Assembly (NCBI GenBank): GCA_016214745.1
Contig: JACRNW010000001.1
Coordinates: forward strand, 1,038 to 65,037
Length of the DNA stretch: 64,000 nt
From: Candidatus Falkowbacteria bacterium
GTDB taxonomy: Bacteria; Patescibacteriota; Patescibacteriia; XYB2-FULL-38-15
Direction: 5' to 3'
Part shown: in pieces, positions 1,044 through 50,675 of the stretch
Layout of the letters: every line of letters starts with the position of its first letter
Numbering within the stretch: position 1 is the stretch's first letter
Program-made: the position numbers and the translations under genes
The notes under the pieces: generated by a model
Database searches by the model: none
What the model was told of the DNA's origin: nothing
The model's input: only the letters and a program-made list of their open reading frames with translations

Positions 1044-1058
1044 GTGTGATATTTTTAT

Positions 1059-2066
1059 TTACTTCGTCGCTAAAATGCTCTTTTTGTAAGATTCCAAATT
1101 TTCCAAAGCAATGCCTGTACCTTTCGCCACGCAAAGCAATGGCTCGTTCGCCACGTAAGCCGAAATGCCAGTCGCTTGGGAAATTAATTGATCAATATTC
1201 CGGAGAAGCGCCGTCCCGCCGGAAAGAACAACTCCTTTATCAATCACGTCGGCGGAGAGTTCTGGCGGAGTATTATACAAAACTTCCTTGACCGCGGCGA
1301 TGATGCCGTCAAGTTCGTTTGCCACCGCGTCGGTCACGTCGTCTGAGGTGACAATAATCGTTCGCGGCAAACCCGTAATCATGTCGCGGCCGCGCACTTC
1401 CATTCTTAATTTTTCTTCAAGATAAAGCGCTGAACCTATTTCTATTTTAATTTGTTCCGCCGTCCTCTCTCCGATTGCCAAACCATATTTCCGACGGGTA
1501 AATTCCGCGATGGCCGTATCTAATTTATTGCCGCCGATTCTAACCGAGGCGGAAGAAACAATGCCGCCGAGTGAAATCACAGCCATTTCCGCCGTACCGC
1601 CGCCGATATCAATAATCATATGGCCCGAAGCGCTGCCGATCGGAATGTTCGCGCCGATTGCGGCCACTATCGGCTCTTTAATAACATAAGCCGCTTTGGC
1701 GCCGGCCGTAATCGTCGCGTCAATCACCGCTCTTTTTTCCGTTGAAGTAATTCCTGCCGGCACGGCAACCATCACTTCGGGACGAAAAAGCCGCACGCCG
1801 CCCAATGCCTTATTGATAAAATATCTGAGCATTGTTTCGGTTGTTTTGTAATCGGCAATCACGCCGTCTTTAAGCGGCCGTCTCGCGACGATTGTTTCCG
1901 GAGTTCGACCGAGCATTTCCTTGGCTTCATGACCAACGGCTAAAATTTTTCTATCAGAAACAGAAAGCGCAACCACCGACGGCTCGTTGATGATAATTCC
2001 CCTCTTGGGAACATGGACCAAAACATTCGTTGTTCCAAGATCAATTCCGATCTTTTTTCTTAACAT
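1059..2066 (-). CDS. mreB: rod shape-determining protein MreB (actin homolog)
   Basis: 335 aa. Starts IGIDLGTTN, has DIGGGTAE and ends VLSGGTALLRNID..., the full actin/MreB phosphate-binding and adenosine motifs. Confidence 0.9.
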   Translation of the reverse strand: MLRKKIGIDLGTTNVLVHVPKRGIIINEPSVVALSVSDRKILAVGHEAKEMLGRTPETIVARRPLKDGVIADYKTTETMLRYFINKALGGVRLFRPEVMVAVPAGITSTEKRAVIDATITAGAKAAYVIKEPIVAAIGANIPIGSASGHMIIDIGGGTAEMAVISLGGIVSSASVRIGGNKLDTAIAEFTRRKYGLAIGERTAEQIKIEIGSALYLEEKLRMEVRGRDMITGLPRTIIVTSDDVTDAVANELDGIIAAVKEVLYNTPPELSADVIDKGVVLSGGTALLRNIDQLISQATGISAYVANEPLLCVAKGTGIALENLESYKKSILATK

Positions 2067-14662: not shown

Positions 14663-16657
14663 TTACTGTCTGGTGCCAGAACCAGTTAGGGTGCAACTCA
14701 TGTAGTTAACTGTTCCATCAGTCGCGTAACCGACTGCATCCATAGACCCGCTACCGGAAAAAGCCGCGCCGCCGTCCTGCTCACTGAAAGCAAAGTAAAA
14801 TATTGCCGAAGCATAAGCAGTGCCACCCTCTACGGGCATTGACATCTGAAAGGATTCAATGGCCGCACCCGAATCGTCAATCGCGACATAAGTATTTACT
14901 GTGCTGTCAAACGTAACATTATTTATCACCGTAAAATCAAGCCCAAACGTATCTGAATAGGTTGGCCTACCCGGAACAGTGGTCACACAGTTGCCGGTCA
15001 ATGTTCCTGTATAATGCCCGTCCCACTGACCACCGGCCTCTCCTTCCGCCTGTAACTCGGCGGTGCTGGGCAAAAGATTTTTTTCCGTACAACCAGACTC
15101 ACCTCCCATATATCTGCCGCCAGAGTATGTCAAGAAATCCCAACACTGGGTATTGTTATTACCAATTTTGTAGTCGCAAGTATAACCAAATTCGGCGGTG
15201 GGAAGGCGGCTCTTGGCAAGCCCGGCCCCGCCTACGGTTCCGCCCTTGGCCACGCAGTCGTCGTAAAATTTTTGCACGGTCGGACTGTGGCCAGAGGATG
15301 AAGGTTCGCCGATATAGATAACGCCCATTCCTTCCAAATTATGCCAACCATTTTCCCAATCTTTTCCCGAATTCTTTTCCCCTTTAGCAAAACCTATCGC
15401 CGAAGCATCAATGCCATTTGTTGATTGCATTATCTCTTCAACACAATAAACGTTGGTCGGCCCGCCCGAACCGGTACTAATCCCGCCGCGACCAATGCAG
15501 ATTTTTCTGGCTGGCGGCTGATTACTGGTGCCACCGGTTGTACCACCAGTTGTGCCGCCGCCCGAGACGTTTCCTCCAGTATTTTGTTTCTGCTGATTAG
15601 TTTGATTTTGTTGTTGATTATTAGTTTGTGTTTGTTGTCCTGACGGTTTACACCTCGTGTCGCAATTGTACATCCGTCTTTGGTAGTCAGTCATCTTAAC
15701 GGTCGGATCACTGCAAACCTGACAAGTAACATCCATCCCCGGCCCGATGTCCGGAACTGGCGGCAAGGCAGCAAAAGCCGAAGGAATAAAATCAAACGAG
15801 AAGAAACCCGCTTTCTCGGAATGCGTAATGCCATTCAACCAATGACGCTCTACTCTTAATTTGGCGCCGACGTAAAGCATTGACACCTGATTTTTCATTT
15901 GGATGGCGCCGTCACCAAATTCTTTAAGCTCGGAAATTTTTTGGACGCTATGCTCAAATAATTGCTTGGCTTTTCTGTCGCTCAATTTTAATTTAAAATC
16001 GCCCGGGTCGTCCCTCACATCTCCCCAAACTTTTGGATCTAAAGATGCGATTCCAACTTCGTTGACCCAGTCTACGGCCGCCTCTTTATAACTCTCCAAT
16101 TCTTTGGGCACACTAAGATCTTTCAATCTTCCCGACACCATCTGAGTTTCAATGCCGACTCTCTGCCAGGAAGCGGTAACGAGTGGTTTTTTTTCTACCA
16201 ATGAATCGCCCATTATTTTTGCCACAGTCGCTTCAGCCAAATTATCCTGAATTAAAAAAAGTGAATCGGAAAATTTTTTATCGTTCAAGTCGGTTAAATA
16301 GACATAAACCCCGAAACCGGCCAAAAGCAAAATCACACCGATGATGATTGAACCGATAATCGGTTGTCGGATGATGAGACGGATTAAGGAATAAAATATA
16401 AAATAAATAAGATAAAGAATGCAAATTGCAAAAAAGGCGAGAAACGCGGATATTCCCAAAATTTCTAAACGGCTGTACTCTGCAAAGCTAGACACTCCAC
16501 TTTCCATAAAATAAAACACTGGAATTAAAACCACAAAACCCACGAACCAAATAGTGAAAAAATCAGGCTCATTGTCTTTTGTTTGGCGGTAACTGGCGTG
16601 CCGCATTTGGGGCAAAATTTCAAAAAGGCCCCCAAATTCCGGCCGCATTTTGCGCAA
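14663..16657 (-). CDS. large hypothetical membrane protein with Q/N/G/T-rich low-complexity linker and Cys-containing C-terminal region
   Basis: 664 aa with N-terminal TM helices and QQQNQTNQQKQNTGGNVSGGGTTGGTTGG. Confidence 0.55.
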   Translation of the reverse strand: MRKMRPEFGGLFEILPQMRHASYRQTKDNEPDFFTIWFVGFVVLIPVFYFMESGVSSFAEYSRLEILGISAFLAFFAICILYLIYFIFYSLIRLIIRQPIIGSIIIGVILLLAGFGVYVYLTDLNDKKFSDSLFLIQDNLAEATVAKIMGDSLVEKKPLVTASWQRVGIETQMVSGRLKDLSVPKELESYKEAAVDWVNEVGIASLDPKVWGDVRDDPGDFKLKLSDRKAKQLFEHSVQKISELKEFGDGAIQMKNQVSMLYVGAKLRVERHWLNGITHSEKAGFFSFDFIPSAFAALPPVPDIGPGMDVTCQVCSDPTVKMTDYQRRMYNCDTRCKPSGQQTQTNNQQQNQTNQQKQNTGGNVSGGGTTGGTTGGTSNQPPARKICIGRGGISTGSGGPTNVYCVEEIMQSTNGIDASAIGFAKGEKNSGKDWENGWHNLEGMGVIYIGEPSSSGHSPTVQKFYDDCVAKGGTVGGAGLAKSRLPTAEFGYTCDYKIGNNNTQCWDFLTYSGGRYMGGESGCTEKNLLPSTAELQAEGEAGGQWDGHYTGTLTGNCVTTVPGRPTYSDTFGLDFTVINNVTFDSTVNTYVAIDDSGAAIESFQMSMPVEGGTAYASAIFYFAFSEQDGGAAFSGSGSMDAVGYATDGTVNYMSCTLTGSGTRQ

Positions 16658-16765: not shown

Positions 16766-16779
16766 TTTTGAGACCAAAC

Positions 16780-16851
16780 TCCGAGACTTGGATTCGTCCG
16801 GTCATTCGACCGGACGCCCCGTCGGATGACGGGGCGAACTCCCGCCCTAAT
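16780..16851 (-). repeat. tRNA-linked GC-rich hairpin element, ending in a degenerate copy of the tRNA-Gln 3' end
   Basis: Read in tRNA orientation: after tRNA-Gln comes GGGCGGGAGTTCGCCCCG, then hairpins CCCCGTCatccGACGGGG and GTCCGGTCgaatGACCGGAC, then CGAATCCAAGTCTCGGAG. That last stretch copies the tRNA 3' end CGAATCCAGGTCCCCGAG. Confidence 0.55.
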
Positions 16852-16922
16852 CTCGGGGACCTGGATTCGAACCAGGATAGCCACCTTCAAAGGGTGGTGT
16901 CCTACCGTTAGACGATCCCCGA
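16852..16922 (-). tRNA. tRNA-Gln (anticodon UUG)
   Basis: Manual fold: acceptor UCGGGGA/UCCCCGA with the U1:A72 typical of bacterial tRNA-Gln, D-arm GTCT/GGAC, anticodon stem CCACC/GGTGG with loop CTTTGAA, T-arm CCTGG-TTCGAAT-CCAGG, discriminator G. No CCA is encoded. Confidence 0.8.
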
Positions 16923-16947
16923 GAGCAGAGCGAGAAATTTAAATAAA

Positions 16948-17929: not shown

Positions 17930-18280
17930 CTAGAATTTAGAATTAACAAAGTTATTTAATATTTTCATCACCTCTACTAAGGTAATCTCTACTCCTTTAA
18001 AACTTAATTTCGGAAATAAAACTTTAGCAATTTCGATCTGGCTTTCCAATTCTGACCCAGAACCAAACGCAACGCACAATAATTGTTTCTTTTCTTTGGC
18101 GTGAAAACGATGATAGCTCTCAGCAATATTGGAAGAAATAGAAATTACAGCTCTTCTCATCTGATTCGTTAAACCATACACTTCAGAATGAGGAAATTCA
18201 TCTGTCAACCGATAAATCTCTACAGCCAAATCACGCGCTTTCTGCCAAACCACCAATTCCTTAAAAGATTTTGTGGCCAT
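17930..18280 (-). CDS. four-helix-bundle protein (23S rRNA intervening-sequence protein family, TIGR02436-like)
   Basis: 116 aa. VVWQKARDLAVEIYRLT...ISSNIAESY is characteristic of this family. It is inserted between ftsE and ftsX. Confidence 0.7.
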   Translation of the reverse strand: MATKSFKELVVWQKARDLAVEIYRLTDEFPHSEVYGLTNQMRRAVISISSNIAESYHRFHAKEKKQLLCVAFGSGSELESQIEIAKVLFPKLSFKGVEITLVEVMKILNNFVNSKF

Positions 18281-19089: not shown

Positions 19090-19265
19090 GATTAATATTT
19101 ACAAAAAGGCGCGGGATTAGTATAGTGGCAGTATGCGACCTTCCCAGGCCCCCACACCAAATTCGCGAGAGTAGTTCAATGGTAGAATGCGTGCTTCCCA
19201 AGCACGAGACGGGGGTTCGATTCCCCTTTCTCGCTGATTTGGTGTAGGGGCAAGTTGAGGCGCCG
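19090..19265 (+). other. outer tRNA-Gly(CCC)-like sequence interrupted by ~105 nt that contain a complete tRNA-Gly(CCC) (probable disrupted or pseudo tRNA)
   Basis: The 5' part GCGGGAT-TA-GTAT-AGTGGCA-GTAT-G-CGACC-TTCCCA(G) is a tRNA 5' half with a CCC anticodon loop. The 3' part (A)AGTTG-AGGC-GCCGG-TTCGATT-CCGGT-ATCCCGC-T supplies a T-arm and a complementary acceptor strand. The two parts are separated by 19127..19230. Confidence 0.4.
19144..19214 (+). tRNA. tRNA-Gly (anticodon CCC)
   Basis: GCGAGAG-TA-GTTC-AATGGTA-GAAT-G-CGTGC-TTCCCAA-GCACG-AGAC-GGGGG-TTCGATT-CCCCT-TTCTCGC-T, a clean cloverleaf. It is bracketed by a 14/15-bp helix (19127..19141 pairing with 19216..19230). Confidence 0.85.
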
Positions 19266-19282
19266 GTTCGATTCCGGTATCC

Positions 19283-19424
19283 CGCTTTGAAAATACAAAT
19301 AAATTTTGGCGGAATCGAACGGGAAGGGTTTGGGAAACGGGAGTTTCCCACCTTTTCGGCGGAAAACAGTTGGGGAAAACCGCCGGTTTGCCCCAAGCGC
19401 AGTCCCGCCATGGCGGGACGAGTA
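19283..19424 (+). ncRNA. tRNA-linked structured element (copy 1) ending in a duplicate of the preceding tRNA 3' end
   Basis: TTTTGGCGGAATCGAACGGGAAGGG, hairpin GGGAAACgggaGTTTCCC, hairpin CGGCGG...CCGCCG, hairpin GCGCAGTCCCGCCATGGCGGGACGAGTAGTGAG, then ATTCCGGTATCCCGCT, which copies 19250..19265. A homologous copy lies at 28989..29120. Confidence 0.55.
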
Positions 19425-19447
19425 GTGAGATTCCGGTATCCCGCTTT

Positions 19448-19523
19448 TAAAAACTTGGCGCAATCTTTGCCGACGTAGCTCAGCCAGCAGAGCAATGCTT
19501 TCGTAAAGCAGAGGTCGTGGGTG
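19448..19523 (+). tRNA. tRNA-Thr (anticodon CGU), CCA encoded
   Basis: GCCGACG-TA-GCTC-AGCCAGCA-GAGC-A-ATGCT-TTCGTAA-AGCAG-AGGTC-GTGGG-TGCAAAT-CCCAC-CGTCGGC-T-CCA. Confidence 0.8.
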
Positions 19524-19524
19524 C

Positions 19525-19558
19525 AAATCCCACCGTCGGCTCCAGAAAACAGCAATTC
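19525..19558 (+). terminator. rho-independent terminator after tRNA-Thr
   Basis: AAAACAGCaattcatttttgaagGCTGTTTTTT. Confidence 0.55.
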
Positions 19559-19562
19559 ATTT

Positions 19563-19583
19563 TTGAAGGCTGTTTTTTGATTT
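19563..19583 (+). repeat. degenerate duplicate of tRNA-Thr 3' end
   Basis: AACTCCCACCGTCGGCTTAGG versus the tRNA 3' end AAATCCCACCGTCGGCTCCA. Confidence 0.5.
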
Positions 19584-19642
19584 AACTCCCACCGTCGGCT
19601 TAGGAAAAACGGACTTTTAGAGAAAGGCCGTTTTTCTTTTTC

Positions 19643-20653
19643 CTAAATTTTTATAAACCGCCAAATTCTTGCCTTTGCTGATTCTTCAGTCAGATAATCG
19701 TCCAAACTCTTTGTCTTTATTAAAATATGCTCCGCCCGTACTTGGATGACTTCGCCATTTTCATCTTTAACTTGCTCCGTAACTTTTATAATATGGTAAC
19801 CATAACTCGTTAAAACCAAATCGCTTGTCTCTCCGACTCCGAGAGCAAACGCCGCCGCTTCAAATTCCGGGACCATGGTTCCTCGGCCAAAATAACTCAG
19901 GTCGCCGCCATCCTCCGCAGTCGTGTCTTCACTGTATTCTTTTGCCAAATCCTCAAAACTTTTTTCTCCCCTTTTCACTTCAGCCAAAACATTTTCAGCT
20001 TTTTGTTTCGCCTCTTGGTTTAATGTCTCGTCTTTGGAAATGGCTTCCTGCAATTTTTGCTGGATTAAAAACGGCTTTAAAACTTTTTCCTTAAACTCTT
20101 CAATGCCCCAGCCGTATTGTTCTTGCAAAGTTTTTTCAACATTTTCCCTTGATTCGTCTTGAGAGACAATCTTTTCCACTTCCGCTTCCAGCTCGCTGTC
20201 TGAAACGCTCACATTATATTTTTTTGCCAATTGATAAGAAAGTTCATTTTTCAAAAGCCGATCCAAAACCTGGCTTTTAAGTTCTTGCTCGCTCGGTATC
20301 TCCGCTCCCAATTCCGCGCCCTGGCTCGCAAAAAAAGTCTTTAAAGTTTCCAGGTCATCCGCGTAATCGGAAAATCTGACCGGATGCCAATTAACAAGAG
20401 CGGCGGGATATGGCGCAACTTTGGTAATTTTTGCGACGACTTCTCCGCTCCAGCCAAAACGATAAATTCCGATGCCGAAAATTACCGCGGCTAAAACTAA
20501 AATTGAAAGCGCTCCCAAGCCAAGTCCCAAAAAGAATTTTTTCAGGCCGCCTTTTTTAGAATCAGACATTGTCTCGCCCGCGCCGGCTGTTTCGGGAATA
20601 GATTCAGAAACTTCCATCTCTTTTTCCTCGTTCTCTTTTAATGGTAAATCCAT
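19643..20653 (-). CDS. membrane-anchored parvulin-type peptidyl-prolyl isomerase (PrsA/SurA-like)
   Basis: N-terminal TM helix and a SurA_N-like helical region. The C-terminal PpiC domain reads GGDLSYFGRGTMVPEFEAAAFALGVGETSDLVLTSYGYHIIKV. Confidence 0.7.
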   Translation of the reverse strand: MDLPLKENEEKEMEVSESIPETAGAGETMSDSKKGGLKKFFLGLGLGALSILVLAAVIFGIGIYRFGWSGEVVAKITKVAPYPAALVNWHPVRFSDYADDLETLKTFFASQGAELGAEIPSEQELKSQVLDRLLKNELSYQLAKKYNVSVSDSELEAEVEKIVSQDESRENVEKTLQEQYGWGIEEFKEKVLKPFLIQQKLQEAISKDETLNQEAKQKAENVLAEVKRGEKSFEDLAKEYSEDTTAEDGGDLSYFGRGTMVPEFEAAAFALGVGETSDLVLTSYGYHIIKVTEQVKDENGEVIQVRAEHILIKTKSLDDYLTEESAKARIWRFIKI

Positions 20654-28799: not shown

Positions 28800-28900
28800 A
28801 AAACTCTTGCCAAAAATAAAATGCCTTGGTATTATTATATCAAATTAAGACTAAAACGGCTATCAACGACTTCCTCGTTCTTTTTTTAAAATTTCATTAT

Positions 28901-28973
28901 GACCCGGTAGCTCAGCTGGTAGAGCATCTGCCTTTTAAGCAGAGTGTCCTGGGTTCGAGCCCCAGCCGGGTCA
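28901..28973 (+). tRNA. tRNA-Lys (anticodon UUU)
   Basis: GACCCGG-TA-GCTC-AGCTGGTA-GAGC-A-TCTGC-CTTTTAA-GCAGA-GTGTC-CTGGG-TTCGAGC-CCCAG-CCGGGTC-A. Confidence 0.9.
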
Positions 28974-28988
28974 TTTTTTATTTGCTAA

Positions 28989-29120
28989 TTTTTGGCTGGG
29001 CTCGAACGGGAAGGGGTCGGGAAACGGGAGTTTCCCGATTTGCGGAAATATTAAAACCGCAGGGTTTTAAAGCGCAGTCCCGCCATGGCGGGACGAGCAG
29101 TGAGCGCCCCAGCCGGGTCA
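28989..29120 (+). ncRNA. tRNA-linked structured element (copy 2) ending in duplicate of tRNA-Lys 3' end
   Basis: TTTTTGGCTGGGCTCGAACGGGAAGGGG, hairpin CGGGAAACgggaGTTTCCCG, hairpin TGCGG...CCGCA (compensatory relative to copy 1), GCGCAGTCCCGCCATGGCGGGACGAGCAGTGAGC, then GCCCCAGCCGGGTCA plus TTTTTTATTT, which duplicates 28958..28983. Confidence 0.55.
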
Positions 29121-29141
29121 TTTTTTATTTCCCCATAATTT

Positions 29142-31097: not shown

Positions 31098-31122
31098 ATC
31101 AATAAATAAACTATAAGTAAAA

Positions 31123-31714
31123 GGAGTTCACCCTTTAGGGTGTAAGTTCTAATCGCCCTCAACTGTAAAATCCACAATCGGATGTAACTCAAAAACCGAT
31201 TCTATCCACCCCAATCCTCTTTTTCCAATCCACTGCCCAGCGCTTGAAAATGGGTATTGAAAAGCCTCTGTTTGAGTTTTGCACAAACCGTGCTTTACTG
31301 GTTGATGATGAATATAATTAAAGTGCTTCCAAAAATCAACTTCATCGCGAATGCAATGATCCCAATAATTAAACCAAATTTTTCGTTTTTGTACGCGATC
31401 AATTTTATTTAATTGGAAAGCGCTTTTACCATTAATTGTTTGAATAAAGTCGGGTAAATCTTTTCCTCTGGCCATTTTAAAAAGCAGATGATAATGATTG
31501 GAAAGAATGCTCCAAGTATAAAAATTACTCTGAAATTTTCTCCCCGCCTCCCCAATTGTTTTATACAAAATTAATTTTTTATTTTGGCTGGAAAAAAATA
31601 GTTCCTGATTTACCGTTCTCGCCGTAATAAAATAAATTTGCTGGTCAACATACAAATGGGGCGGATAATGTGGTTTGAACATTAAAATATTCTACAGGCT
31701 AAAGCCTGAACTCC
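31123..31714 (-). mobile_element. REP-associated tyrosine transposase (RAYT/IS200-like Y1 transposase) unit flanked by inverted REP-like hairpins
   Basis: The Y1/HuH transposase gene (31149..31682) sits between GGAGTTCACCCTTTAGGGTGTAAGTTC (31123..31149) and its imperfect reverse complement TTCTACAGGCTAAAGCCTGAACTCC (31690..31714). The stems show compensatory changes (CACCC/GGGTG versus CAGGC/GCCTG). Confidence 0.65.
31149..31682 (-). CDS. Y1 (HuH) tyrosine transposase, IS200/RAYT family
   Basis: 177 aa. HYHLLF is the HuH motif, with a conserved Tyr in ...FNYIHHQPVKHGL. The size and motifs fit PF01797. Confidence 0.7.
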   Translation of the reverse strand: MFKPHYPPHLYVDQQIYFITARTVNQELFFSSQNKKLILYKTIGEAGRKFQSNFYTWSILSNHYHLLFKMARGKDLPDFIQTINGKSAFQLNKIDRVQKRKIWFNYWDHCIRDEVDFWKHFNYIHHQPVKHGLCKTQTEAFQYPFSSAGQWIGKRGLGWIESVFELHPIVDFTVEGD

Positions 31715-31729
31715 AAAAAAAATATAAAG

Positions 31730-41723: not shown

Positions 41724-43340
41724 TTATTTAATAATTTTTACCACGCCGTGATTGGCGTCCACCTCTACTATATCGCCATCTTTTAAAACCTTTGTCGCGA
41801 TTTTGGTGCCGATGACACAGGGAATACGAAGTTCGCGAGCCACAATTGCCGCATGAGAAGTTACCCCACCCTGCTCCGTAACAATAGCTGCGGCTTTTTT
41901 CATGGCTGATACTAAATCTGGATTAGTGGCGATAGAAACTAAAATATCGCCCTTCCGCATCTTTTCCATGTCTTCGGGATTGATAACAATTCTCACCGCA
42001 CCCTTCGCTTTTCCTACACAACCACACTGACCTTTTATTTCGCTGACTTCTTCTGCCCCTTTTTCCCGAACTGATTCCGCTAACCTTTTTGCCTTCTCGC
42101 CCGTAAAGACCACGTCTCTCTCCTTTTCGGCGTAATAAACGCAAAGTTTTGTCCGCTTCTTAATTTCTTTTTTATCAAGTCTACTTTTCAAAAGAGCTGC
42201 CCCAACTTCCTGCGGCAGCATAAATTTTACTTGCATCAAACTCAAACCCAGTCTTCTTCCGATCTCCCGTAAAATCGCTTCCATTTGATAAATAGCAAAT
42301 ATCTGCGCATAACGGCGGTATATTTTTGTAATCATAAAATTGCCAAAAGCATCAAAAATTTTTCTCCAGCCGCCTTTGATTTTCAATTTTTTAATCAATG
42401 CATTTCTTTTTCGAACGCCCACTTTAAACTCCTGCTGCATTTCTTGATATTTCTTTTCCAAATCACCTGATACCACAAGCCTCACCAATTCTTTCAGATA
42501 ATGATCAAAACTGTAAATCCCCTGCTTTTCAGTAAAAAGATATCTCATGTAAAAATACTTAAGATAATGTTTTTCTAAAAGTTTATAAATTTCCGGACCA
42601 ATTCTTTCTTTGATTTTTCCCGCTTCTTGCTCAAACAGTTCTTCATATTTTTTTGAATGGGTTTTAAAACCGTACTTTGTTACCTCCCCCTCTTTAAACT
42701 TTTTAAATAATTCCAGAAATAATTTGAGCTGATTTTTGTCTTGTTGAACTTTTTGACCAATTTTCAAAAGTTCCTCTTGTTCAACTTGAATAAGAGATTT
42801 TTGGATTGGCTGAGTAAGAATGACTAGATGTTCATTTATTTTTTCTTCGGAAATTCCAGCGTCTCGCAGATGCTCTTTTAATCGATTAGTCAGATTATTG
42901 TGAAACATGTCAGCAGCAACCGGAATCCATCCCCAACAATAATAGTCAGTGTGAATTTGGTCATGCTTATTGTAAAATTTCCACAACTCTCGTTTAGACA
43001 ATTGCGATAAATTATCTTGTGGCAAAGTATTGGCGTAATTTCTTAACTTATCTGACCAGATTATAATCTCTTTGTTGACCCGCTCGGCGAACTTTGGATT
43101 TTTAATAAATTTTTGGACTATATTCTCACCAACCTCAAAGGAATCATTTTCCCCGTAATAAAACCAAAGATGATAACCGCGATAAATACAAATAATTTTT
43201 TTATAAGCACGACCAGTGAATCTCTTAAATTCATTAACAAAATTTGAAAGCCAGATCTGAGAAAATAAAAAATCGCAATTTGGAATCTCTTCCCCCAACA
43301 TCCACAAGTCTTTGTCATTTAAATATTTCAGCTTTTTCAT
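41724..43340 (-). CDS. PEP-utilising-enzyme mobile (phosphohistidine swivel) domain protein with ~380-aa helical N-terminal domain, paralog 1
   Basis: C-terminus [30 protein letters not shown]. Confidence 0.75.
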
Positions 43341-44839
43341 ATTTTTAATTGTTTCACAACTTTTATTACTCCTTTTGTAGCGTCGACTTCCACTAAATCT
43401 CCATCTTTTAAAACTTTAGTTGCGATTTTGGTGCCAATGACGCAAGGAATTCCCAACTCGCGGGAAATAATGGCGGCATGGGAAGTTATACCGCCCTCGT
43501 CCGTAACAATAGCCGCGGCTTTTTTCATCAAAGGCACATATTCCGGCCTCGTCATGCCGGCTACTAAAATTTCTCCTTTTTCAAGCTTAGCGCCTTTTGG
43601 ATTTAATACTACACGCACCCGCCCCCGAACTTTTCCTCCGGAAGCCGCTGAACCCTTCAATATATTATCTTTGATTTGAATATTTTGAGCAATGATCTTT
43701 TCGGCAAACTTTAAATATTTTTTTCCAGACAAAATTATTCTTTCTCCGTCGTCTTTGTTAATTGATATAAATAACTTTTGGCGCCGTTTTATTTCTTCTT
43801 TGTCATATTGACCATTGGATTTTAAAAATTCAATAAACTCCGGCGCAATCATAAAATGTAAATCAACAAAGGGGACGTTAAACTTTTTGGCTGCTAATTC
43901 CATAATTGTACCGACGGCGTAATTCATATATAAGCCGGTTTTCTTTCTAGCATCTTGCCAAAAACTGGCCACGGCAAACATTTCTAAAAATTGTGCGTCT
44001 TTTTTTAATATTAAATATTTTTTAATCAATTCCCGTTTTTTAGATTTAATATTTTGTTCGTAGTTTTCCAATTTTTCTATTTCTCCCTTGATCTCCCGCC
44101 GAGATTTACCCCTAGTAAGTTCTTGGGCACTTCGCCAAAATTCCCTTTCGCTCACATTTTTATGTTCATAATAACCATTCTCTATCCAAAAATATTTCTT
44201 TTGATGAGATTGAATTAATTGTTTTATTTCTCGAGAAGCCGATCCGTAAGATTTGATTAATTGATCTTTGGCTTTCAGCGCAATGCGCATCAAACCAAGA
44301 TTATTTTCCGCCGAGAAACTCAAACGAGGCTCTTTTAATAATTTAAACAAATCATCGCCGGAAATTTTATATTTATTCTTTATTCCATTTATGTCCTCTT
44401 CGCCAATCATTGATGGCGCTTCAGGTATTGTGGCTCGCCCAAATTCGTAATGAAATTTTTCGGTAATCAATCTATATGATTCCAACAATGGCAGAAAATT
44501 GTTTCTTGCTCTTTGCTGGACAAGGTCAATAAATTCTTTCGCTTCTTTCTGCCAAATGTCAAAATGGTCTTGCACTTTTTTAATATTTTTCTTAAACCAT
44601 TTATAATTCTTAGCCAATTCCGCCTTGTCAAGCACCCAATGAGCTTTCCTGCCGCCATCAAAAATCACACTAAATAAAAATGTATTCATTGAAAACCCAA
44701 GCGTGTCTTTGCTACCGGCACACCAGGCCTCCTCCGCGAGATCATCAAAATGCGGACGCAAAACCGGACCATAAATAGATTTATCCTTTATTGCCTTCAA
44801 TTTTTCTTCCAATATTTGTAATTTTTCCCGGTCATCCAT
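43337..44839 (-). CDS. phosphohistidine swivel domain protein, paralog 2
   Basis: [30 protein letters not shown], plus the shared N-domain motifs ([12 protein letters not shown]; ...[10 protein letters not shown]). Confidence 0.75.
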
Positions 44840-45118
44840 ATATTTATTTTTTGTTCATGTTTCTTTTTCAGTCTCCTTGTCCAATCTAATCGCGTCGCAA
44901 TAATGCGCAGACACCGCACCCATTTGACAAAATTTTCAAAATAGATTATACTATATTGTTTGGTAAAGGTGAAAAATTGTCTGATTCTAGACAATTTTTC
45001 CCATACTAAATTGCACTTTGATAGTGGGCAAAAATTGTTTGGAGACGCTCTATTTATCTCGGTTGAGGTAACGAGAGCGTCTTCAAACAACCGCCCCGAG
45101 GGGGCAAGGAGGAGATCA

Positions 45119-45727
45119 ATGCCCGCAACGATCGTCGTGGTTCGCCATCCCGAGAAGGACGGAGACAAGATCACCCCGCACGGCGCAGAGCAGGCCTTTG
45201 CGGCGGCGCTGGCGCTCGGCGAACGGTTCAAGAACTTCGAAGGGTTCGACCGGCTCATCCACTCCGGCGCGCACCGCGCCTGGCAAGCGCTCCGCGTCAT
45301 GGCCGCGGCCCTGGGTCTGAAACTCCCGGACGAAGAGCGCTCCTTCTTGAACTTCACGGCCACACTCACGCAGACGCTCGGCAGCTCCGACGCGTTCTAC
45401 GCCGAAGTGGCCAAGATGAAGGCGGCGGAAGGAACGGACCGGCTGACGCTCGCCATGGCGCTCCGCCACAGCGAGTTCGCTCGCCAAGGCCGCCAGATCA
45501 TGATCAATGGTCTCCTCGGTCTTGCCTGTGACATGGCGATGAGGGGCCAGGCGACGGCACTCACCGTTTCCCATTCGCCCTGGCTCGAACTGGCGTCCTT
45601 CGACACCGAGAACACGCCCTACGGCATCGGCGAAAGCGATGCCGTGATCTACGTCGTGGCGGGCGACGAAATCCTCGTCGGGAGCGAACTCGTCCGAGCC
45701 CCGCTCCCCGGCAAGCCGCTTTTCTAG
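45119..45727 (+). CDS. histidine phosphatase superfamily protein (SixA/PGAM-like), GC-rich (~64%)
   Basis: MPATIVVVRHPEKDGDKITPHG (RH-type catalytic motif) and a later TVSHSPW. A strong SD CAAGGAGGAG precedes ATG 45119. The ORF track's longer frame from 44960 is AT-rich leader. Confidence 0.55.
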   Translation: MPATIVVVRHPEKDGDKITPHGAEQAFAAALALGERFKNFEGFDRLIHSGAHRAWQALRVMAAALGLKLPDEERSFLNFTATLTQTLGSSDAFYAEVAKMKAAEGTDRLTLAMALRHSEFARQGRQIMINGLLGLACDMAMRGQATALTVSHSPWLELASFDTENTPYGIGESDAVIYVVAGDEILVGSELVRAPLPGKPLF

Positions 45728-45757
45728 CCTACCTCACCTTTCCCACCGAAGTGCATC

Positions 45758-45796
45758 TCCCACGCCCGGTCTCCTGACTGGGCGTTCTTTTTTTAT
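45758..45796 (+). terminator. rho-independent terminator
   Basis: CACGCCCGGtctcctgaCTGGGCGTTCTTTTTTTATTT. Confidence 0.5.
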
Positions 45797-46051
45797 TTAC
45801 CCTGTTAAATAAGATTTGAGCCGATTCCTTAAAAATAACTTGCCGAGATAGGTCTTTAAATACTTTTCTCTATGGGTGGCATCTTGTTGATTCAAACAAG
45901 CCTCATAATATATTAAAACTAATGGCCCTCTGTCTTTAGTAGATTCAACTTTCCTTTTTTGATGAAGCTCAAATCTTGATTTTAAATCTTTGGTATAACC
46001 TGTGTAGAATTTTTTATCCTTTAAGGACATCAAAACATATACGTAATGCAT
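45797..46051 (-). CDS. GIY-YIG nuclease superfamily small protein
   Basis: 84 aa. HYVYVLMSLKDKKFYTGYTKDLKSRFELHQ is the GIY-(10-11)-YIG module. Confidence 0.7.
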   Translation of the reverse strand: MHYVYVLMSLKDKKFYTGYTKDLKSRFELHQKRKVESTKDRGPLVLIYYEACLNQQDATHREKYLKTYLGKLFLRNRLKSYLTG

Positions 46052-46061
46052 AGATTTAAAA

Positions 46062-47576
46062 TCATTTAACGGGGTGAATTTTTTTAACTACTCCTTTTGT
46101 CGCGTATACTTCAACTAAATCTCCATCCTTCAAAACCTTCGTCGCGATTTTTGTTCCGATGACGCAAGGTTTTTTCATTTCTCGGGCGACAATGGCCGCG
46201 TGGCACATAATGCCGCCTTCGTCAGTGACAATAGCCGCAGCTTTGCGAATGGCGGGCATTAAGTTTGGGCTAGTGGCGGCGGAAACCAAAATATCTTTTT
46301 CATTCATTTTTTTTATTTCTTCGGGAGTATTTATCAACTTCACCTTTCCCCTTGCCTTACCCTTAAAGGCGACTGCCCCAGTAATTTCCTTCACCGCTTT
46401 TATCTCTTTCTCTTTCCCGGCATTCTCGTGAAAAAAATCTTGCGCCTGTTTACCGGTCAGACAAAGTTTTCTTCCGCCCTTTCTCCCGTAAACAACTAAT
46501 TTAATTCGTTCGTTAATAACGCCAGAATTAATTTTCCCCCTAAGCAATGCCTCTTCCATTTCTTCCGGCAACATCATCCTGACTTGTTTCAAACTTAGAC
46601 GTAAACGTTTTGCAATTTCTTTTAGTAAAAATTCTGCGTGATAGTATGACCAGGTTTGTAATTCGCGGCGATAAGGTTTGAAAAAGACCAAATCCCTGGC
46701 TAACTCAATGATATTCCGCTCGTAATCGTTGGCTTTAATTTGTTTTAATATTTTCTTTTGCTGTGATCTAATATCTGATTTACTCTTTTTGTGTTCTGCT
46801 ATTTCCTTGGAGGGATTTATTTCCCGACGAATAAAATCTTTGATTATATCAAGAAAATAAATATGATCTGCCGCCGGTCCCTCGTAAACGTAATGCACCC
46901 AAGCGTATCTTTGGGTATGATTATCCACCAACCGCCAAACTTTTTTATTATTCTCCCTAATATATTTTACTAATTCTTGTGAATCTAAAACTTTAAATTT
47001 CTTTTCCAAATTTTTATATTTTTTAATTTGAATCAAAACTTTCAAGAGATCCAACTCCTGCTGTTTATTAAAGGTTTCACGCAAGGGCGTAGTCAGTTCT
47101 CCAAAATATTTTTCCGCTTTTTTATTTTTAAGAATTCTATTTAATTCATCCGATAAAAAAGTCGTGTTTTGATAATCCAAGAGGGGAGAAATTAAACCAT
47201 ACGCATACACTTCTTGATTTGATAACACATAATGCTGATAATAATTGTTCAAAACTCTATTACTCTTTCCTTTTAAATTACTTTTAAAAATTTTCGTAAA
47301 AGATGCCTGTTCCAAACCAAGTTTTTCCATTTGCGAAAAAATATTTCTCAAAAAATTTTGATTTTTCTTAATTAGTTTTACAATTGCAAAATGTGCCGCG
47401 CCCCAATTACTCGGCAGATGATAATACTCAATCGCGTTATTCTCAATTTTGAAAAAAAGGTCCCCCGACTTCCCTATTATCTTTTTTATATTTTTGCTGA
47501 ACGCTTCTACCATCGTGAATATGGGAAATAGAGAAACAACATATTCATTGGCTATCTTTTGCCATTTTTCTTTCAT
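46062..47576 (-). CDS. phosphohistidine swivel domain protein, paralog 3
   Basis: [30 protein letters not shown], plus the shared N-domain motif QRYAWVHYVYEGP. Confidence 0.75.
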   Translation of the reverse strand: MKEKWQKIANEYVVSLFPIFTMVEAFSKNIKKIIGKSGDLFFKIENNAIEYYHLPSNWGAAHFAIVKLIKKNQNFLRNIFSQMEKLGLEQASFTKIFKSNLKGKSNRVLNNYYQHYVLSNQEVYAYGLISPLLDYQNTTFLSDELNRILKNKKAEKYFGELTTPLRETFNKQQELDLLKVLIQIKKYKNLEKKFKVLDSQELVKYIRENNKKVWRLVDNHTQRYAWVHYVYEGPAADHIYFLDIIKDFIRREINPSKEIAEHKKSKSDIRSQQKKILKQIKANDYERNIIELARDLVFFKPYRRELQTWSYYHAEFLLKEIAKRLRLSLKQVRMMLPEEMEEALLRGKINSGVINERIKLVVYGRKGGRKLCLTGKQAQDFFHENAGKEKEIKAVKEITGAVAFKGKARGKVKLINTPEEIKKMNEKDILVSAATSPNLMPAIRKAAAIVTDEGGIMCHAAIVAREMKKPCVIGTKIATKVLKDGDLVEVYATKGVVKKIHPVK

Positions 47577-47591
47577 ATTTTTACTATTAAT

Positions 47592-49127
47592 TTACTTAAT
47601 TACTTTTACCACTCCCTTTGTCGCGTCTACTTCCACCAAATCTCCGTCTTTTAAAATTTTACTAGCATTTTTTGTACCAATAATACATGGCTTATTCATC
47701 TCGCGCGCGACGATTGCCGCATGAGAAGTAATGCCGCCGATATCTGTCACGAAAGCCGCGGCTAATTTCATGGCTGGCAAAAGCTGAGGAATGGTTTGAA
47801 CTGCCACTAGAATATCATCTTTTTTTATTTTCTTCATCTCGTACGGCTCGTTGATAATTTTCACCACTCCCCTAACCTTGCCGGCGCAGGCAATATTACC
47901 TTTAATAACACCTGTTTTGACTACCCGCTCGATCTGGAATTTTTCTCTGATAATTTTTTCGGCTTTTTCCCCGGTAAAAATTCTTAAATCGTTAAGATCC
48001 TTAACGTAATTTACGCAAAAATTATATCTTTGTCTCAACATGCTAACCCTGGGAATTTTTCCGCCCCTTAGCATTCTAATGAACTCGAATCTGGTTAAAT
48101 TTTGTAAATCCTTGTAATCTTTTCCTGAACTCCGGGCAAATCTTTTTAAGGATAAGGTCAAAAGGTAAAAAGTGAAAAATAGTAATTCTGAACGAATCAT
48201 CTTTGCTCCGGCAAATTCTCGGGCAGTCTCAAAATAATGCCTTTCACCCTCATCCAAATTAAGCTCTTTGAAATACTGCTCTTGCAATTTAATCAAAGGT
48301 CGCAAGTCAACTGATTCTTTTAAATTTCCTAATTCTTTTTTATCTTCTAAAATCACCTCTATTTTTTCTATTAATTTTTTCAGATCCATTTCTGGGCCAA
48401 TGTGACCGTAGTCTATCCATCTAAACTGATAAACCAAATCATTCAATCCCGAGAACAAGGCGGGGTAATTCCTTTTCAATAATGAAAATAACCTTGGGGT
48501 CGGGCTTTCCAAAAAAATATTTTTTATTTTTAATCTTTCTATTTCCTGACAAATATCAAATAATTTCTTTTTAAAAATAAAACTTTTTGTTTTTAACGAT
48601 GTCTTACCTAAAACGCCCACATAACTCCCAAGGGATCTTTTCAATTTATATTGCTCAATCTTTTTATTAACAATTTTTTCCAAAGCGTTGGAAAGCCCGT
48701 AGTGACTTAAATCGGCCATCACTGCTCCAAACCCCACGCTGCAAATTTTAAAAAATGTTTCAATTGCCTCTTCCCATTTATCGGCTATCTTTTTGAAATT
48801 GGGATTTTCATTTTCCAACAAATCAAAGATTTCATAATATTTTTTATAAAGATCAACCGCAATCTCTTCGGTTTTGATCAATATCTTTTTCCCATAATTT
48901 TTTTCACTATGAATCTTCTTGGCAATTTTTTCTCCCAAAACCCGCAAAATATCTGGATTGCAAAACCATTCTTCCGTGCCTCCTTTAAAGAGGACATAAT
49001 TATCTCTCATCCGGGGCAATCCCAAATATTCCTCTATTAATTTATGAGAAAATGCTTCTTGGTTAATGGTAATATTAAGAAAAACGGTATTATTTTCTTT
49101 GTGGGTTGAAACGTATTTCTTTTCCAT
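47592..49127 (-). CDS. phosphohistidine swivel domain protein, paralog 4
   Basis: [30 protein letters not shown], plus the N-domain motif QFRWIDYGHIGP. Confidence 0.75.
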   Translation of the reverse strand: MEKKYVSTHKENNTVFLNITINQEAFSHKLIEEYLGLPRMRDNYVLFKGGTEEWFCNPDILRVLGEKIAKKIHSEKNYGKKILIKTEEIAVDLYKKYYEIFDLLENENPNFKKIADKWEEAIETFFKICSVGFGAVMADLSHYGLSNALEKIVNKKIEQYKLKRSLGSYVGVLGKTSLKTKSFIFKKKLFDICQEIERLKIKNIFLESPTPRLFSLLKRNYPALFSGLNDLVYQFRWIDYGHIGPEMDLKKLIEKIEVILEDKKELGNLKESVDLRPLIKLQEQYFKELNLDEGERHYFETAREFAGAKMIRSELLFFTFYLLTLSLKRFARSSGKDYKDLQNLTRFEFIRMLRGGKIPRVSMLRQRYNFCVNYVKDLNDLRIFTGEKAEKIIREKFQIERVVKTGVIKGNIACAGKVRGVVKIINEPYEMKKIKKDDILVAVQTIPQLLPAMKLAAAFVTDIGGITSHAAIVAREMNKPCIIGTKNASKILKDGDLVEVDATKGVVKVIK

Positions 49128-49136
49128 AAAATATTC

Positions 49137-50675
49137 TTAAATTTTTTTCACAATCCCCCTTGTCGCATCAACCTCCACTAAATCTCCATCCCTCAAAACT
49201 TTCGTAGCAATTTTCGTGCCGACGACACAGGGAATTTTTAATTCCCGAGAGACAATCGCCGCATGGCACGTCAAACCGCCAACGTTCGTAACAATAGCCG
49301 AAGCAAGTTTCATGGCCGGAACAAGAGCCGGATAAGTTGTTTCGCTCAACATCACATCTCCCTTTTTCATTTTTTTCAAATCATCTACTGTCTCAATTAT
49401 TGACACTCGCCCCTTCGCCCTTCCTGGCGAAGCGCAAATCCCAAATAATTTTTCTACTTTTTTAACTTTCTGTTCAACAAATGTAGATCTGTCCAGAAAT
49501 TCCTGCGCCGCCTTACCGATATAAACCACCGGCCGATGAACGCTATCGGTATAAATCAGACTAAAATTATATCTCTCATTTAATTTGTTGGCATCATACT
49601 TATCTTTTAATAATGCGTCTTTCACCTCCCAATTACAGAAAAATCTTACCTGCCTTAAACTTAAACCAAGTCTTCGTCCAATTTCTTTGGCTATTTTATC
49701 CAAAACATAGGCGCCATAATACATACAATCTTTGCGCCAACTCTTCAACCAAACAATATCTCTTGCGATATCAAAAAGTTTTTTCTCTTTCTTGCTAAAA
49801 TTTAATTGTTTAAAAATTTTTACCCTTTTTTTCTTTATCTCCGCAAATTTATTCTTACCCTCTTCTATCAATTCCTCAATATTATTTTGTTTCAGAAGTC
49901 CTCGCCAAATTTCCAAAAAATATTCTAATTCAAGAACTGGCCCTTCGTAGTTATAGTGTAACCAAAGATATTTTTGATAATGCTTTTTTATCTTCTGTTG
50001 TAAAGAGGGGCTAATCTTGTTCAGATTTTTTTTGATCTCATCAATATTATTTTTCAAAAATAAATTTTTTGTTTTCTGATCTTTTTTCAACAACTTAACT
50101 AACTCTAATGATTCTTTTGATTCAATCTCAATAAAACTGGATTTTTCGGGGGTGGTAAGAACACTAAATGTCTCTGATAATTTTTGATCAGATTTAACTT
50201 TCTTTTTTAATAAATCTAAAAGATAATTACTAAAAAGTTGGCGATCAGCTTCCAGGAGCCACGTGGTTATTTGTCCAGGAAGATGAGACCAATATTGGCG
50301 GTCAATCAATTGATCAAAAACTCCCGCCAATTGCTTGCCTGATAGTGCCGAAAAATCTTTATTTTCTAAACTTTTTGCAAAAGAAAAATAATTCTTGGTA
50401 TATTTTACCAATTCTGAATTTCTTTTTTCTGTCCATTCGGGATATTTAACAGTTTTATTGAGCAAAAAATTTATACCCTTAGTAAAATCATCTCTTAAAT
50501 AACAAAGTGTAAGCGTGCCTTCATTTACAATAAATAAAACATGCTTGAAGTGTGGGCCGCCGCCTTTTTTCTCTATGTAAGTACCGTACTCTTCAAGAAA
50601 CGGCACAAGCATAAGGTAGTTGCACTTTGGGATTTTTTCAATTTTGAACCATCTAAATTTCTTTATTTCTTCCAT
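49137..50675 (-). CDS. phosphohistidine swivel domain protein, paralog 5
   Basis: ASAIVTNVGGLTCHAAIVSRELKIPCVVGT, plus N-domain motifs QKYLWLHYNYEGP and [13 protein letters not shown]. Confidence 0.75.
   Translation of the reverse strand: MEEIKKFRWFKIEKIPKCNYLMLVPFLEEYGTYIEKKGGGPHFKHVLFIVNEGTLTLCYLRDDFTKGINFLLNKTVKYPEWTEKRNSELVKYTKNYFSFAKSLENKDFSALSGKQLAGVFDQLIDRQYWSHLPGQITTWLLEADRQLFSNYLLDLLKKKVKSDQKLSETFSVLTTPEKSSFIEIESKESLELVKLLKKDQKTKNLFLKNNIDEIKKNLNKISPSLQQKIKKHYQKYLWLHYNYEGPVLELEYFLEIWRGLLKQNNIEELIEEGKNKFAEIKKKRVKIFKQLNFSKKEKKLFDIARDIVWLKSWRKDCMYYGAYVLDKIAKEIGRRLGLSLRQVRFFCNWEVKDALLKDKYDANKLNERYNFSLIYTDSVHRPVVYIGKAAQEFLDRSTFVEQKVKKVEKLFGICASPGRAKGRVSIIETVDDLKKMKKGDVMLSETTYPALVPAMKLASAIVTNVGGLTCHAAIVSRELKIPCVVGTKIATKVLRDGDLVEVDATRGIVKKI

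Follow-up and report, generated by a model that had tools for sequence, protein, structure and literature searches.

A short structured element was found twice in the stretch of bacterial DNA analysed here, a 64-kb window from Patescibacteria (Candidatus Falkowbacteria, contig JACRNW010000001.1) that encodes FtsEX, MurG, FtsW and DivIC, and both copies lie directly 3′ of a tRNA gene and in the same orientation as this gene (ARAGORN). The element is probably mobile and integrates site-specifically, and the explanation that we tentatively regard as the best for the observations as a whole, at a little less than an even chance, is an integrative element of Patescibacteria that is non-autonomous, has no genes and resides in the 3′ part of tRNA genes. 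The insert at tRNA-Gly(CCC) is referred to as copy A and the insert at tRNA-Lys(TTT) as copy B. An earlier note on this DNA had described two similar structured regions of about 130 nt at 19283–19424 and 28989–29120, and these are present as described, with 76% column identity over the wider regions including flanks (MAFFT) and with the two quoted blocks, GCAGTCCCGCCATGGCGGGACGAG and GGGAAACGGGAGTTTCCC (24 nt and 18 nt), occurring exactly twice each in the window, where shuffles lead to expected counts of 0.00 and 0.03. The boundaries given there were slightly off, since the conserved core extends over 19315–19429 and 29002–29104, and the inserted DNA over 19289–19447 (A, 159 nt) and 28984–29130 (B, 147 nt). 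The two cores, together with a related copy C from the contig L001, show 80% identity (MAFFT), and a search with a profile of five cores returned A and B as the sole matches within the 64 kb.

Copies A and B and the empty sites of relatives

All parts of the two copies lie on the + strand, and the direct repeats that bound them begin at T-loop nt 59/60 of the tRNA and end 1–10 nt beyond the gene. The target of copy B is tRNA-Lys(TTT) at 28900–28974 (ARAGORN, Rfam). Its first repeat, S1 (GCCCCAGCCGGGTCATTTTTTATTT, 28959–28983), which reaches from T-loop nt 59 to 10 nt beyond the tRNA, forms an exact 25-nt direct repeat with the second one, S2, at 29106–29130. It is followed by a spacer (GCTAATTTTT, 28984–28993), which is missing from seven of seven empty sites in relatives, and by a target-complementary arm (GGCTGGGCTCGAAC, 28994–29007), which is the reverse complement of GTTCGAGCCCCAGCC minus one base. 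The conserved core (29002–29104) is supported by its profile match (E=2e-28), its fold (z=−4.1) and the table of base pairs, and contains the helices P1 (29018–29037), P2a (29041–29045 with 29057–29061), P2 (29051–29070) and P3 (29077–29094) before the 3′ junction GAGCAGTGAG at 29095–29104. S2 comprises the displaced 3′ part of tRNA-Lys and its trailer and leads into the native terminator, and 3′ of it the window is colinear with L051, L047 and L049 at their empty sites.

Copy A shows the same composition. Its target, the resident tRNA-Gly(CCC) at 19111–19286, equals the uninterrupted tRNA-Gly(CCC) of the relative L047 apart from a nested insert at about 19147–19253, and ARAGORN and Rfam report at this position only the inner tRNA (19165–19235). 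S1 (GATTCCGGTATCCCGCTTT, 19270–19288), the 3′ end of the tRNA, is an exact 19-nt direct repeat with S2 at 19429–19447. The AT-rich spacer (19289–19309) is not present at the corresponding position of L047, and the arm (CGGAATCGAAC, 19310–19320) is an 11-nt exact reverse complement of tRNA positions 53–63, GTTCGATTCCG. The core, which runs from TCGAAC to GAGTAGTGAG (19315–19429; profile match E=1e-22, fold z=−3.1, pair table), contains P1 at 19331–19350, P2a at 19357–19362 with 19380–19385, P2 at 19370–19396 and P3 at 19402–19419. S2, the displaced original 3′ part of the tRNA, is followed by the native flank (ACTTGGCGCAATCTT), which is the sequence found 3′ of tRNA-Gly in L047. Since each copy carries at its 5′ end the reverse complement of T-loop and T-stem of its own tRNA, the block TCGAAC is the anti-T-loop. 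The direct repeats of the tRNA 3′ end together with the target-complementary arm show an insertion into the tRNA gene rather than a free-standing small RNA gene.

Syntenic contigs of relatives were reached via homologues of the glycosyltransferase (GT4) that adjoins tRNA-Lys; the window protein itself has 100% identity to one recorded under the name Candidatus Falkowbacteria. The tRNA-Lys gene has no insert in L047, L049, L051, L056, L058, L060 and L064 (GT4 protein 80–91% identical), and in all seven it continues straight into its trailer, which starts with TTTTTTATTT in four cases, and into the terminator, which is the one found 3′ of the second repeat of copy B. In the same way, tRNA-Gly(CCC) is uninterrupted in L047 and is followed by the sequence that comes after S2 of copy A in the window. 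As the relatives show empty sites, A and B are insertions, in agreement with the earlier suggestion of a mobile mini-element, and represent gains of 159 nt and 147 nt, respectively; for copy B, seven exact losses would be a far less parsimonious explanation than a gain in a single lineage. The distal repeat is the one that continues into the native flank at both loci, and, judging from these flanks, the proximal tail and the spacer would have arrived with the element. On the sequence evidence, both window copies are inserted orientation-specifically at a fixed point of the T-loop, with a proximal repeat that keeps the tRNA intact, and the arms and repeats are target-specific.

Further copies and the conserved fold

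The earlier note had named the lack of further copies anywhere as the outcome that would speak against its proposal. Pattern scans and a profile search of other genomes and metagenomes yielded six more, so that eight copies are known in all. Copy C is located at tRNA-Ser(CGA) in L001, a metagenome-assembled genome of Candidatus Paceibacterota, copy D at tRNA-Arg(CCG) in L005 (same as L013), copies E and F in tandem at tRNA-Gly(TCC) in L014/L052 from groundwater Patescibacteria, copy G directly past the stop codon of pyrG in L058, and copy H at a second, different tRNA-Lys in L074. The eight copies represent six different targets and at least five lineages. A two-anchor pattern used on the metagenomes was overly strict on the element and overly loose on the background; of its 45 matches, 40 fell by chance into GC-rich coding sequence, and another two were either unclear or duplicates.

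The layout from 5′ to 3′ is S1, spacer, arm, core, the junction GAGYAGTGAG and S2, always in the orientation of the tRNA, with an element length of about 125–160 bp and no conserved open reading frame (ORF). S1 represents the tRNA from T-loop nt 59/60 to 1–10 nt past the gene and completes a working tRNA. The spacer comprises 10–60 nt, is AT-rich or forms a terminator-like hairpin, and in one case is 1.1 kb long and contains an ORF. The arm complements tRNA positions 53 to about 63–69, and its constant end is TCGAAC. In the tRNA-linked copies except F, the arm is an exact 10–16-nt complement of the local tRNA from G53 onward, and a perfect direct repeat of 15–25 nt starts at nt 59/60 (15–19 nt in C, D, E and H). 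Copy F is old and truncated, with a 9-nt arm remnant and two mismatches in its repeat, and in copy G the functional end of pyrG is followed by the core and then by a second, degenerate version of the pyrG end, about 65 nt long. In the tandem of L014, copy E adjoins the tRNA and has a perfect S2, and F lies 1.1 kb further out with a degenerate S2. Such an arrangement would result if each new unit were integrated at the functional tRNA gene, with earlier units being displaced away from it. The spacer of copy F in L014 includes an orphan ORF of 303 aa (ORF303), so that the spacer can hold cargo; ORF303 has no match in Pfam, NCBIfam, PADLOC or PHROG and no homologue.

Five copies were folded independently, and the same closing helix and three hairpins appeared in their minimum-free-energy folds (z=−3.1 to −5.5). 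The closing helix, P0, is formed by the arm and S2 and is extended by CGAAC:GUGAG with tandem G·A pairs; in copy E, GUUCG replaces GUGAG, which makes the extension fully Watson-Crick. The arm:S2 helix comprises 6–10 bp, with single bulges or mismatches 5–7 nt from the junction in A, B and E. P1 (GGGAAAC/GUUUCCC) is nearly invariant. P2 is an 8-bp hairpin around AAACC-NNNN-GGUUU, in place of which copy D has AGGGC-GGAA-GCCCU, and in P3 the outer GUCC/GGAC pairs are kept and the inner pairs are variable. In P2a, the partner of an upstream GCGG-type run is the loop together with the last part of the 5′ strand of P2, and the polarity of this helix is swapped in copy D (CUGCC:GGCGG). P2a is the hairpin for which the earlier note had reported covariation (CGGCGG..CCGCCG versus TGCGG..CCGCA), which is real and holds in the six additional copies; it overlaps the second, better-supported hairpin P2 (AAACC-NNNN-GGTTT). 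P2 and P2a share 2–3 nt and therefore either exclude each other or form a strained pseudoknot.

The count of base pairs was based on helices extracted by hand and not on the MAFFT alignment or a covariance model, because MAFFT misregisters the compensated P2 of copy D and the P1 loops of C and H. Counted in this way, both sides changed at six of eight P2 positions, at all five P2a positions and at two positions each in P1 and P3, and the pairs add up to 173 Watson-Crick, 6 G·T, 1 A·C and 6 other mismatches. The pair tables and the independent folds support the conserved structured element with compensatory changes that had been postulated, and the core takes up the same fold in all copies. From the excess of G·T over A·C it follows that the folded strand is the tRNA-sense strand. 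The covariation signal itself fits RNA and single-stranded DNA alike, between which the sequence does not distinguish.

Known elements and other insertions in these genomes

The earlier note had also proposed that the element is a repetitive extragenic palindromic (REP)-like sequence mobilised by a REP-associated tyrosine transposase (RAYT). The window does contain a RAYT-like Y1_Tnp gene (31149–31682, − strand) 2 kb from copy B, within a unit at 31121–31720 (31123–31714 including the REPs). On either side of the gene there is a REP-like hairpin in inverted orientation, GGAGTT-CACCC-TTTA-GGGTG and GGAGTT-CAGGC-TTTA-GCCTG, and the stems of these hairpins covary. This gene is itself an insertion, because the unit is missing between ftsW and murG in L056, L058 and L074, and L047 has a NUDIX gene instead. 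The element resembles REPs and REPINs in being short, gene-less, hairpin-rich, intergenic and strand-specific. However, the link was rejected for A and B, as REPs carry no target repeats of 15–25 nt, whereas the element has such repeats as well as a tRNA-specific arm; the 64 kb of the source genome analysed here contain two copies of it. The REP of the RAYT consists of GGAGTT and a 5-bp hairpin, and the GGAGTT of the element sits not 5′ of a hairpin but in the loop and 3′ strand of P1, where it is not conserved: copies C and H have CAGCCGGTTT and CGAAGTTTT without it. Directly before a hairpin, GGAGTT was found at the two RAYT flanks, in an insert at tRNA-Gln and at one site in a coding region (38995, − strand), not in A or B.

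The tRNA-Gln locus (16770–16923, − strand), described earlier as analogous, shares the architecture of tRNA, insert and tRNA 3′-end duplicate, but the insert is a different one and resembles with its GGAGTT and hairpin the REPs that flank the RAYT gene. It comprises 55 nt with GGAGTT, CGCCCCGTC..GACGGGGCG and GTCCGGTC..GACCGGAC and is followed by a degenerate tRNA tail, GAATCCAAGTCTCGGAG. This tail is closer to the tRNA-Gln of L047 than to that of the window, and the resident gene differs from the L047 gene throughout. Downstream of tRNA-Gln (region 14663–16657) lies an ORF of 664 aa without a family match, which is not found at that position in L047.

Around A, B and D, searches of Rfam 15 at the gathering threshold and at E≤10 returned only tRNAs above the threshold, in line with the novelty that the earlier note had assumed, and no match to the group I intron core RF00028 at E≤10. 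A sub-threshold hit to the adenosylcobalamin (AdoCbl) riboswitch in copy B alone (21 bits versus a threshold of 50) was not reproduced in A and D and was discarded. Scans of IMG/VR with four patterns gave nothing or chance matches in coding DNA, blastn against phage GenBank and PLSDB gave no match, and there is no neighbouring gene common to the loci of copies A–E. A conserved peptide was rejected, as the ATG in P3 of A and B does not occur in C, D and H, and so was a diversity-generating retroelement with template and variable repeats, since the differences between S1 and S2 at pyrG are, by eye, not adenine-specific.

tRNA genes are reportedly the targets of integrative elements with tyrosine integrases, and cis-mobilisable elements (CIMEs) are said to be their integrase-less derivatives. 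Like these, the element is inserted into the tRNA 3′ part, shows a repeat of the tail from the T-loop past the gene end, keeps the tRNA intact by the proximal copy, accumulates in tandem and sometimes uses the 3′ ends of protein genes. Unlike them, it has only 125–160 bp and no genes, no integrase was found beside the attachment site, and it contains an internal inverted copy of the target as well as a conserved structured core. It also differs from elements of T-loop integrases in that the identity starts at nt 59/60 and positions 53–58 become AGTGAG(N) at the right junction. With integron attC sites and the attP of CTX-type integrative mobile elements exploiting Xer (IMEX) it shares inverted target-like arms about 100 nt apart, a bulged imperfect stem and a strand-specific fold, and with integron cassettes the ORF-less units, the one unit with a single ORF in its spacer and the position of the newest unit beside the attachment point. 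Its ends, on the other hand, are NTCGAAC and GTGAG(N) (GTTCGC in copy E) rather than RYYYAAC and GTTRRRY, and they do not correspond to dif either; the centre is conserved instead of variable, the attachment lies at a tRNA T-loop, and the repeats are longer (15–25 nt). As regards an integron array, one two-unit tandem (L014) was seen, and no intI is present among the scanned window ORFs.

Palindrome-associated transposable elements (PATEs) of the IS200/IS605 type and TnpB/IscB guide RNAs likewise feature a structured region of about 100 nt at one end, which is immediately followed by target-derived sequence, and, as with IS200/IS605 derivatives, recognition of the target by base pairing is plausible and the insertion lies beside a constant short motif (GTTCGA). 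In contrast to them, there is no TnpA or TnpB nearby, a repeat is present where those elements are not known to make a duplication, and there is no Rfam match of the IS605 type; a TnpB-type guide RNA was rejected because S1 at the same locus would be recognised as well by a guide identical to S2, which would amount to self-targeting. Miniature inverted-repeat transposable elements (MITEs) derived from DDE transposons have terminal inverted repeats (TIRs) and duplications of 2–10 bp, whereas the ends of copy B show no TIR by eye and the repeats comprise 15–25 nt. Patescibacteria tRNA genes carry group I introns in their anticodon loops (PMC13011429), and these introns were all that full-text searches on tRNA-linked elements in Patescibacteria returned; more general searches likewise gave nothing resembling the element. 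The introns share with it the hosts, the kind of target and an internal P1/P10-like pairing, but the element is located in the T-loop and not in the anticodon loop, its core of about 100 nt does not match RF00028, and the tRNA is complete without splicing. For every family tested, the element lacks at least one of the defining features. It is placed here with the site-specific integrative elements at gene 3′ ends, with a design that matches no described element found.

Several other small insertions were observed in the window and its relatives. The inner tRNA-Gly(CCC) mentioned above (19165–19235) is complete, is flanked by a 14-bp inverted repeat (CCCCCACACCAAAT / ATTTGGTGTAGGGG) and interrupts the resident tRNA-Gly(CCC) in its anticodon loop, at position 37/38, and in L056 (reverse strand of 19114–19653) a whole tRNA-Thr(CGT) is nested in the anticodon loop of the tRNA-Thr(CGT) there. 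These nested genes look like tRNA-in-tRNA replacement cassettes, a second and different type of tRNA-targeting insertion. The tRNA-Thr(CGT) of the window (19545–19642) has a native-like terminator and then an extra 57 nt with a second copy of its 3′ part (TCCCACCGTCGGCT, 19587–19600) and a second terminator, both of which are absent from L047 and L058. In L052 (14730–15281), tRNA-His(GTG) is followed by an ORF of 148 aa (ORF148) and a 21-nt tRNA duplicate from the start of the T-loop (TTCAAATCCCGATAGGCACCC), forming a single-ORF cassette at the tRNA tail without arm or core. A MITE with the TIRs CCCGTTTAGAAGTT...AACTTCTAACGGGG and a 5-bp duplication (CTTGC / CCAAC) occurs in L064 (about 1045–1140, reverse strand), in the promoter region of tRNA-Lys, and in L056, in the SurA/FtsE intergenic region upstream of tRNA-Gly, and not in the window. 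Between ftsE and ftsX, the window has a gene for a “23S rRNA intervening-sequence protein” (Avd-like four-helix bundle, 17930–18280), and since ftsE and ftsX are adjacent in L047, L056 and L058, this gene is another lineage-specific small insertion. Further downstream, at 41724–50675, five tandem ORFs of about 500 aa were found (41724–43340, 43337–44839, 46062–47576, 47592–49127 and 49137–50675), the first three of which were scanned and have a C-terminal “mobile” domain of phosphoenolpyruvate (PEP)-utilising enzymes each.

Proposed mode of integration and its alternatives

In the proposed course of events, the gene-less element would integrate in a site- and orientation-specific manner by recombination between T-loop nt 58 and 59/60, with the enzyme provided in trans. 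The substrate would be a folded single strand in which the duplex of arm and S mimics the target, and the constant CGAAC:GUGAG helix with its tandem G·A pairs would serve as a fixed half-site. The native tail and flank are displaced downstream by the insertion, and the essential tRNA gene would survive because the element brings its own tRNA tail. The geometry of two inverted target copies about 100 nt apart on one strand, with an imperfect stem beside a constant half-helix, direct repeats after integration and accretion on the proximal side, is that of integron attC and CTX-phage attP. Both are folded single strands recombined by tyrosine recombinases, with a single strand exchange that is resolved by replication. 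An element-borne S1 with a folded single strand as the recombination site is the mechanism that we put first, though in itself it is rather doubtful. Similar 3′-end repeats without the core, at tRNA-His with ORF148 in L052, tRNA-Thr and tRNA-Gln, together with that at pyrG, indicate that 3′-end-targeted recombination is common in these genomes.

Several observations weigh against this explanation. The repeat leaves out T-loop nt 54–58, the overlap region required by a classical T-loop integrase, and the perfect repeats enter the locus-specific trailer (10 nt in B), beyond the pairing in the hairpin, which a true duplication predicts equally. The matching of arm and S to a new tRNA has no explanation. 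The tRNA-His cassette has the repeat without arm and core, so the core may be cargo rather than part of the recombination site. The comparison includes only eight hand-aligned copies, and much of the P2/P2a signal comes from copy D. No recombinase was found and the elements are ORF-less: among about 50 window ORFs scanned with Pfam there was no tyrosine or serine recombinase and no intI, the RAYT-like Y1 being the sole gene for a DNA-strand transferase, and the ORFs sampled near copies C, D and E/F included none.

The point on the trailer leads to the question of a true target-site duplication, which would result from guide-directed transposition or retro-insertion, a course we consider unlikely. 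TCGAAC and the arm, on a single strand of the element (RNA or DNA), would pair with the sense T-loop and T-stem, one strand would be cut at 58/59 and the other 15–25 nt downstream, and the fill-in would duplicate the tRNA tail; the enzyme could be an HUH/Y1 protein such as the RAYT of the window, a reverse transcriptase or an RNA-guided recombinase. Such a course is in agreement with repeats that are 100% identical in six copies, with one repeat end fixed at the constant/variable boundary of the arm while the other varies (15–25 nt) and reaches the local trailer, with an arm complement uninterrupted across the insertion point, with the strand-specific fold and with a Y1/RAYT gene in the same window that is not at that position in relatives. 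However, the target-specific arm would have to exist before the insertion, as a duplication mechanism does not make it, and the tRNA-His cassette has a repeat without any guide. Copy B has no terminal inverted repeats at its ends by eye, no reverse transcriptase was seen, and elements of the HUH/IS200 type are not known to make a duplication. In addition, S1 and S2 differ in the older repeats (F, pyrG, tRNA-Gln), which fits an element-borne tail, and the displaced tRNA-Gln tail is closer to the gene of the relative than the resident gene is. A related and very improbable idea is a nucleic-acid-guided homing device, whose core of about 100 nt, closed by the tandem-G·A helix, would use an anti-T-loop guide of TCGAAC and a tRNA-specific extension to find the universally conserved GTTCGA of tRNA T-loops and would then be inserted between nt 58 and 59, by itself or by a host enzyme that it directs; it would be a self-inserting intron-like ribozyme or the RNA or single-stranded DNA partner of an undescribed recombinase, retargeted by a change of the arm.

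The copies could also be remnants or satellites of double-stranded integrase islands, CIME-like in that they were deleted down to the attR-proximal end or mobilised in trans by an integrase as a minimal derivative, with a core that is a small RNA gene or a binding region for accessory proteins beside attP. Direct repeats of the gene 3′ part are reportedly the classical signature of such islands, and those of tRNA and protein genes described here fit it; the core also adjoins the 65-nt duplicate of the pyrG 3′ end, ORF-bearing cassettes exist, and the same window contains remnants lacking the core at tRNA-Thr and tRNA-Gln. We nevertheless give this origin little probability, as separate deletions would not all have ended at one position in seven tRNA-linked copies, which involve five tRNA species, a double-stranded circle of 150 bp is a poor substrate for recombination, an attP of the lambda type has no use for a target-complementary arm of 10–16 nt at a distance of about 100 nt from the junction, and the covariation of the hairpins indicates selection on a single strand. 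A further reading is an RNA device that would be co-transcribed with the tRNA and influence its maturation or abundance via the anti-T-arm, in the extreme case an intron-like ribozyme with an internal guide that base-pairs on both sides of 58/59, so that S1 or S2 can complete the tRNA. Group I introns have a P1/P10 guide that pairs with both sides of the insertion point, and the arm is laid out in a similar way. The interval from the tRNA to copy B contains no promoter-like site, A and C are situated between co-oriented tRNA genes, the G·T and tandem G·A pairs fall on the sense strand, and in folds of the whole precursor the arm pairs with S1 and the 5′ acceptor strand of the tRNA with S2. An RNA device of this kind is nonetheless most improbable: close relatives manage without the element, the tRNA is already complete upstream so that splicing is unnecessary, the core, about 100 nt in length, does not correspond to any known ribozyme or riboswitch, and in C, D, E and H a terminator-like hairpin separates the arm from the tRNA.

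Patescibacteria have tiny genomes with few recognised mobile elements, and the comparison of the window with its close relatives reveals that tRNA genes have been the targets of small insertions several times. By supplying a replacement tail, a parasite with a length of about 150 bp can occupy an essential gene without destroying it, and it carries an explicit complement of its own target beside a conserved fold. Read conservatively, the element is a new structured motif and a candidate for Rfam; it accounts for tRNA genes of these genomes that have duplicated 3′ ends or are called as “broken”, and it is a marker of recent gene flow among uncultured lineages. If the arm does guide integration, the element would represent a compact, naturally retargeted site-specific insertion system anchored on the invariant T-loop, which would be of interest for guide-dependent recombinases and for integration into tRNA genes.

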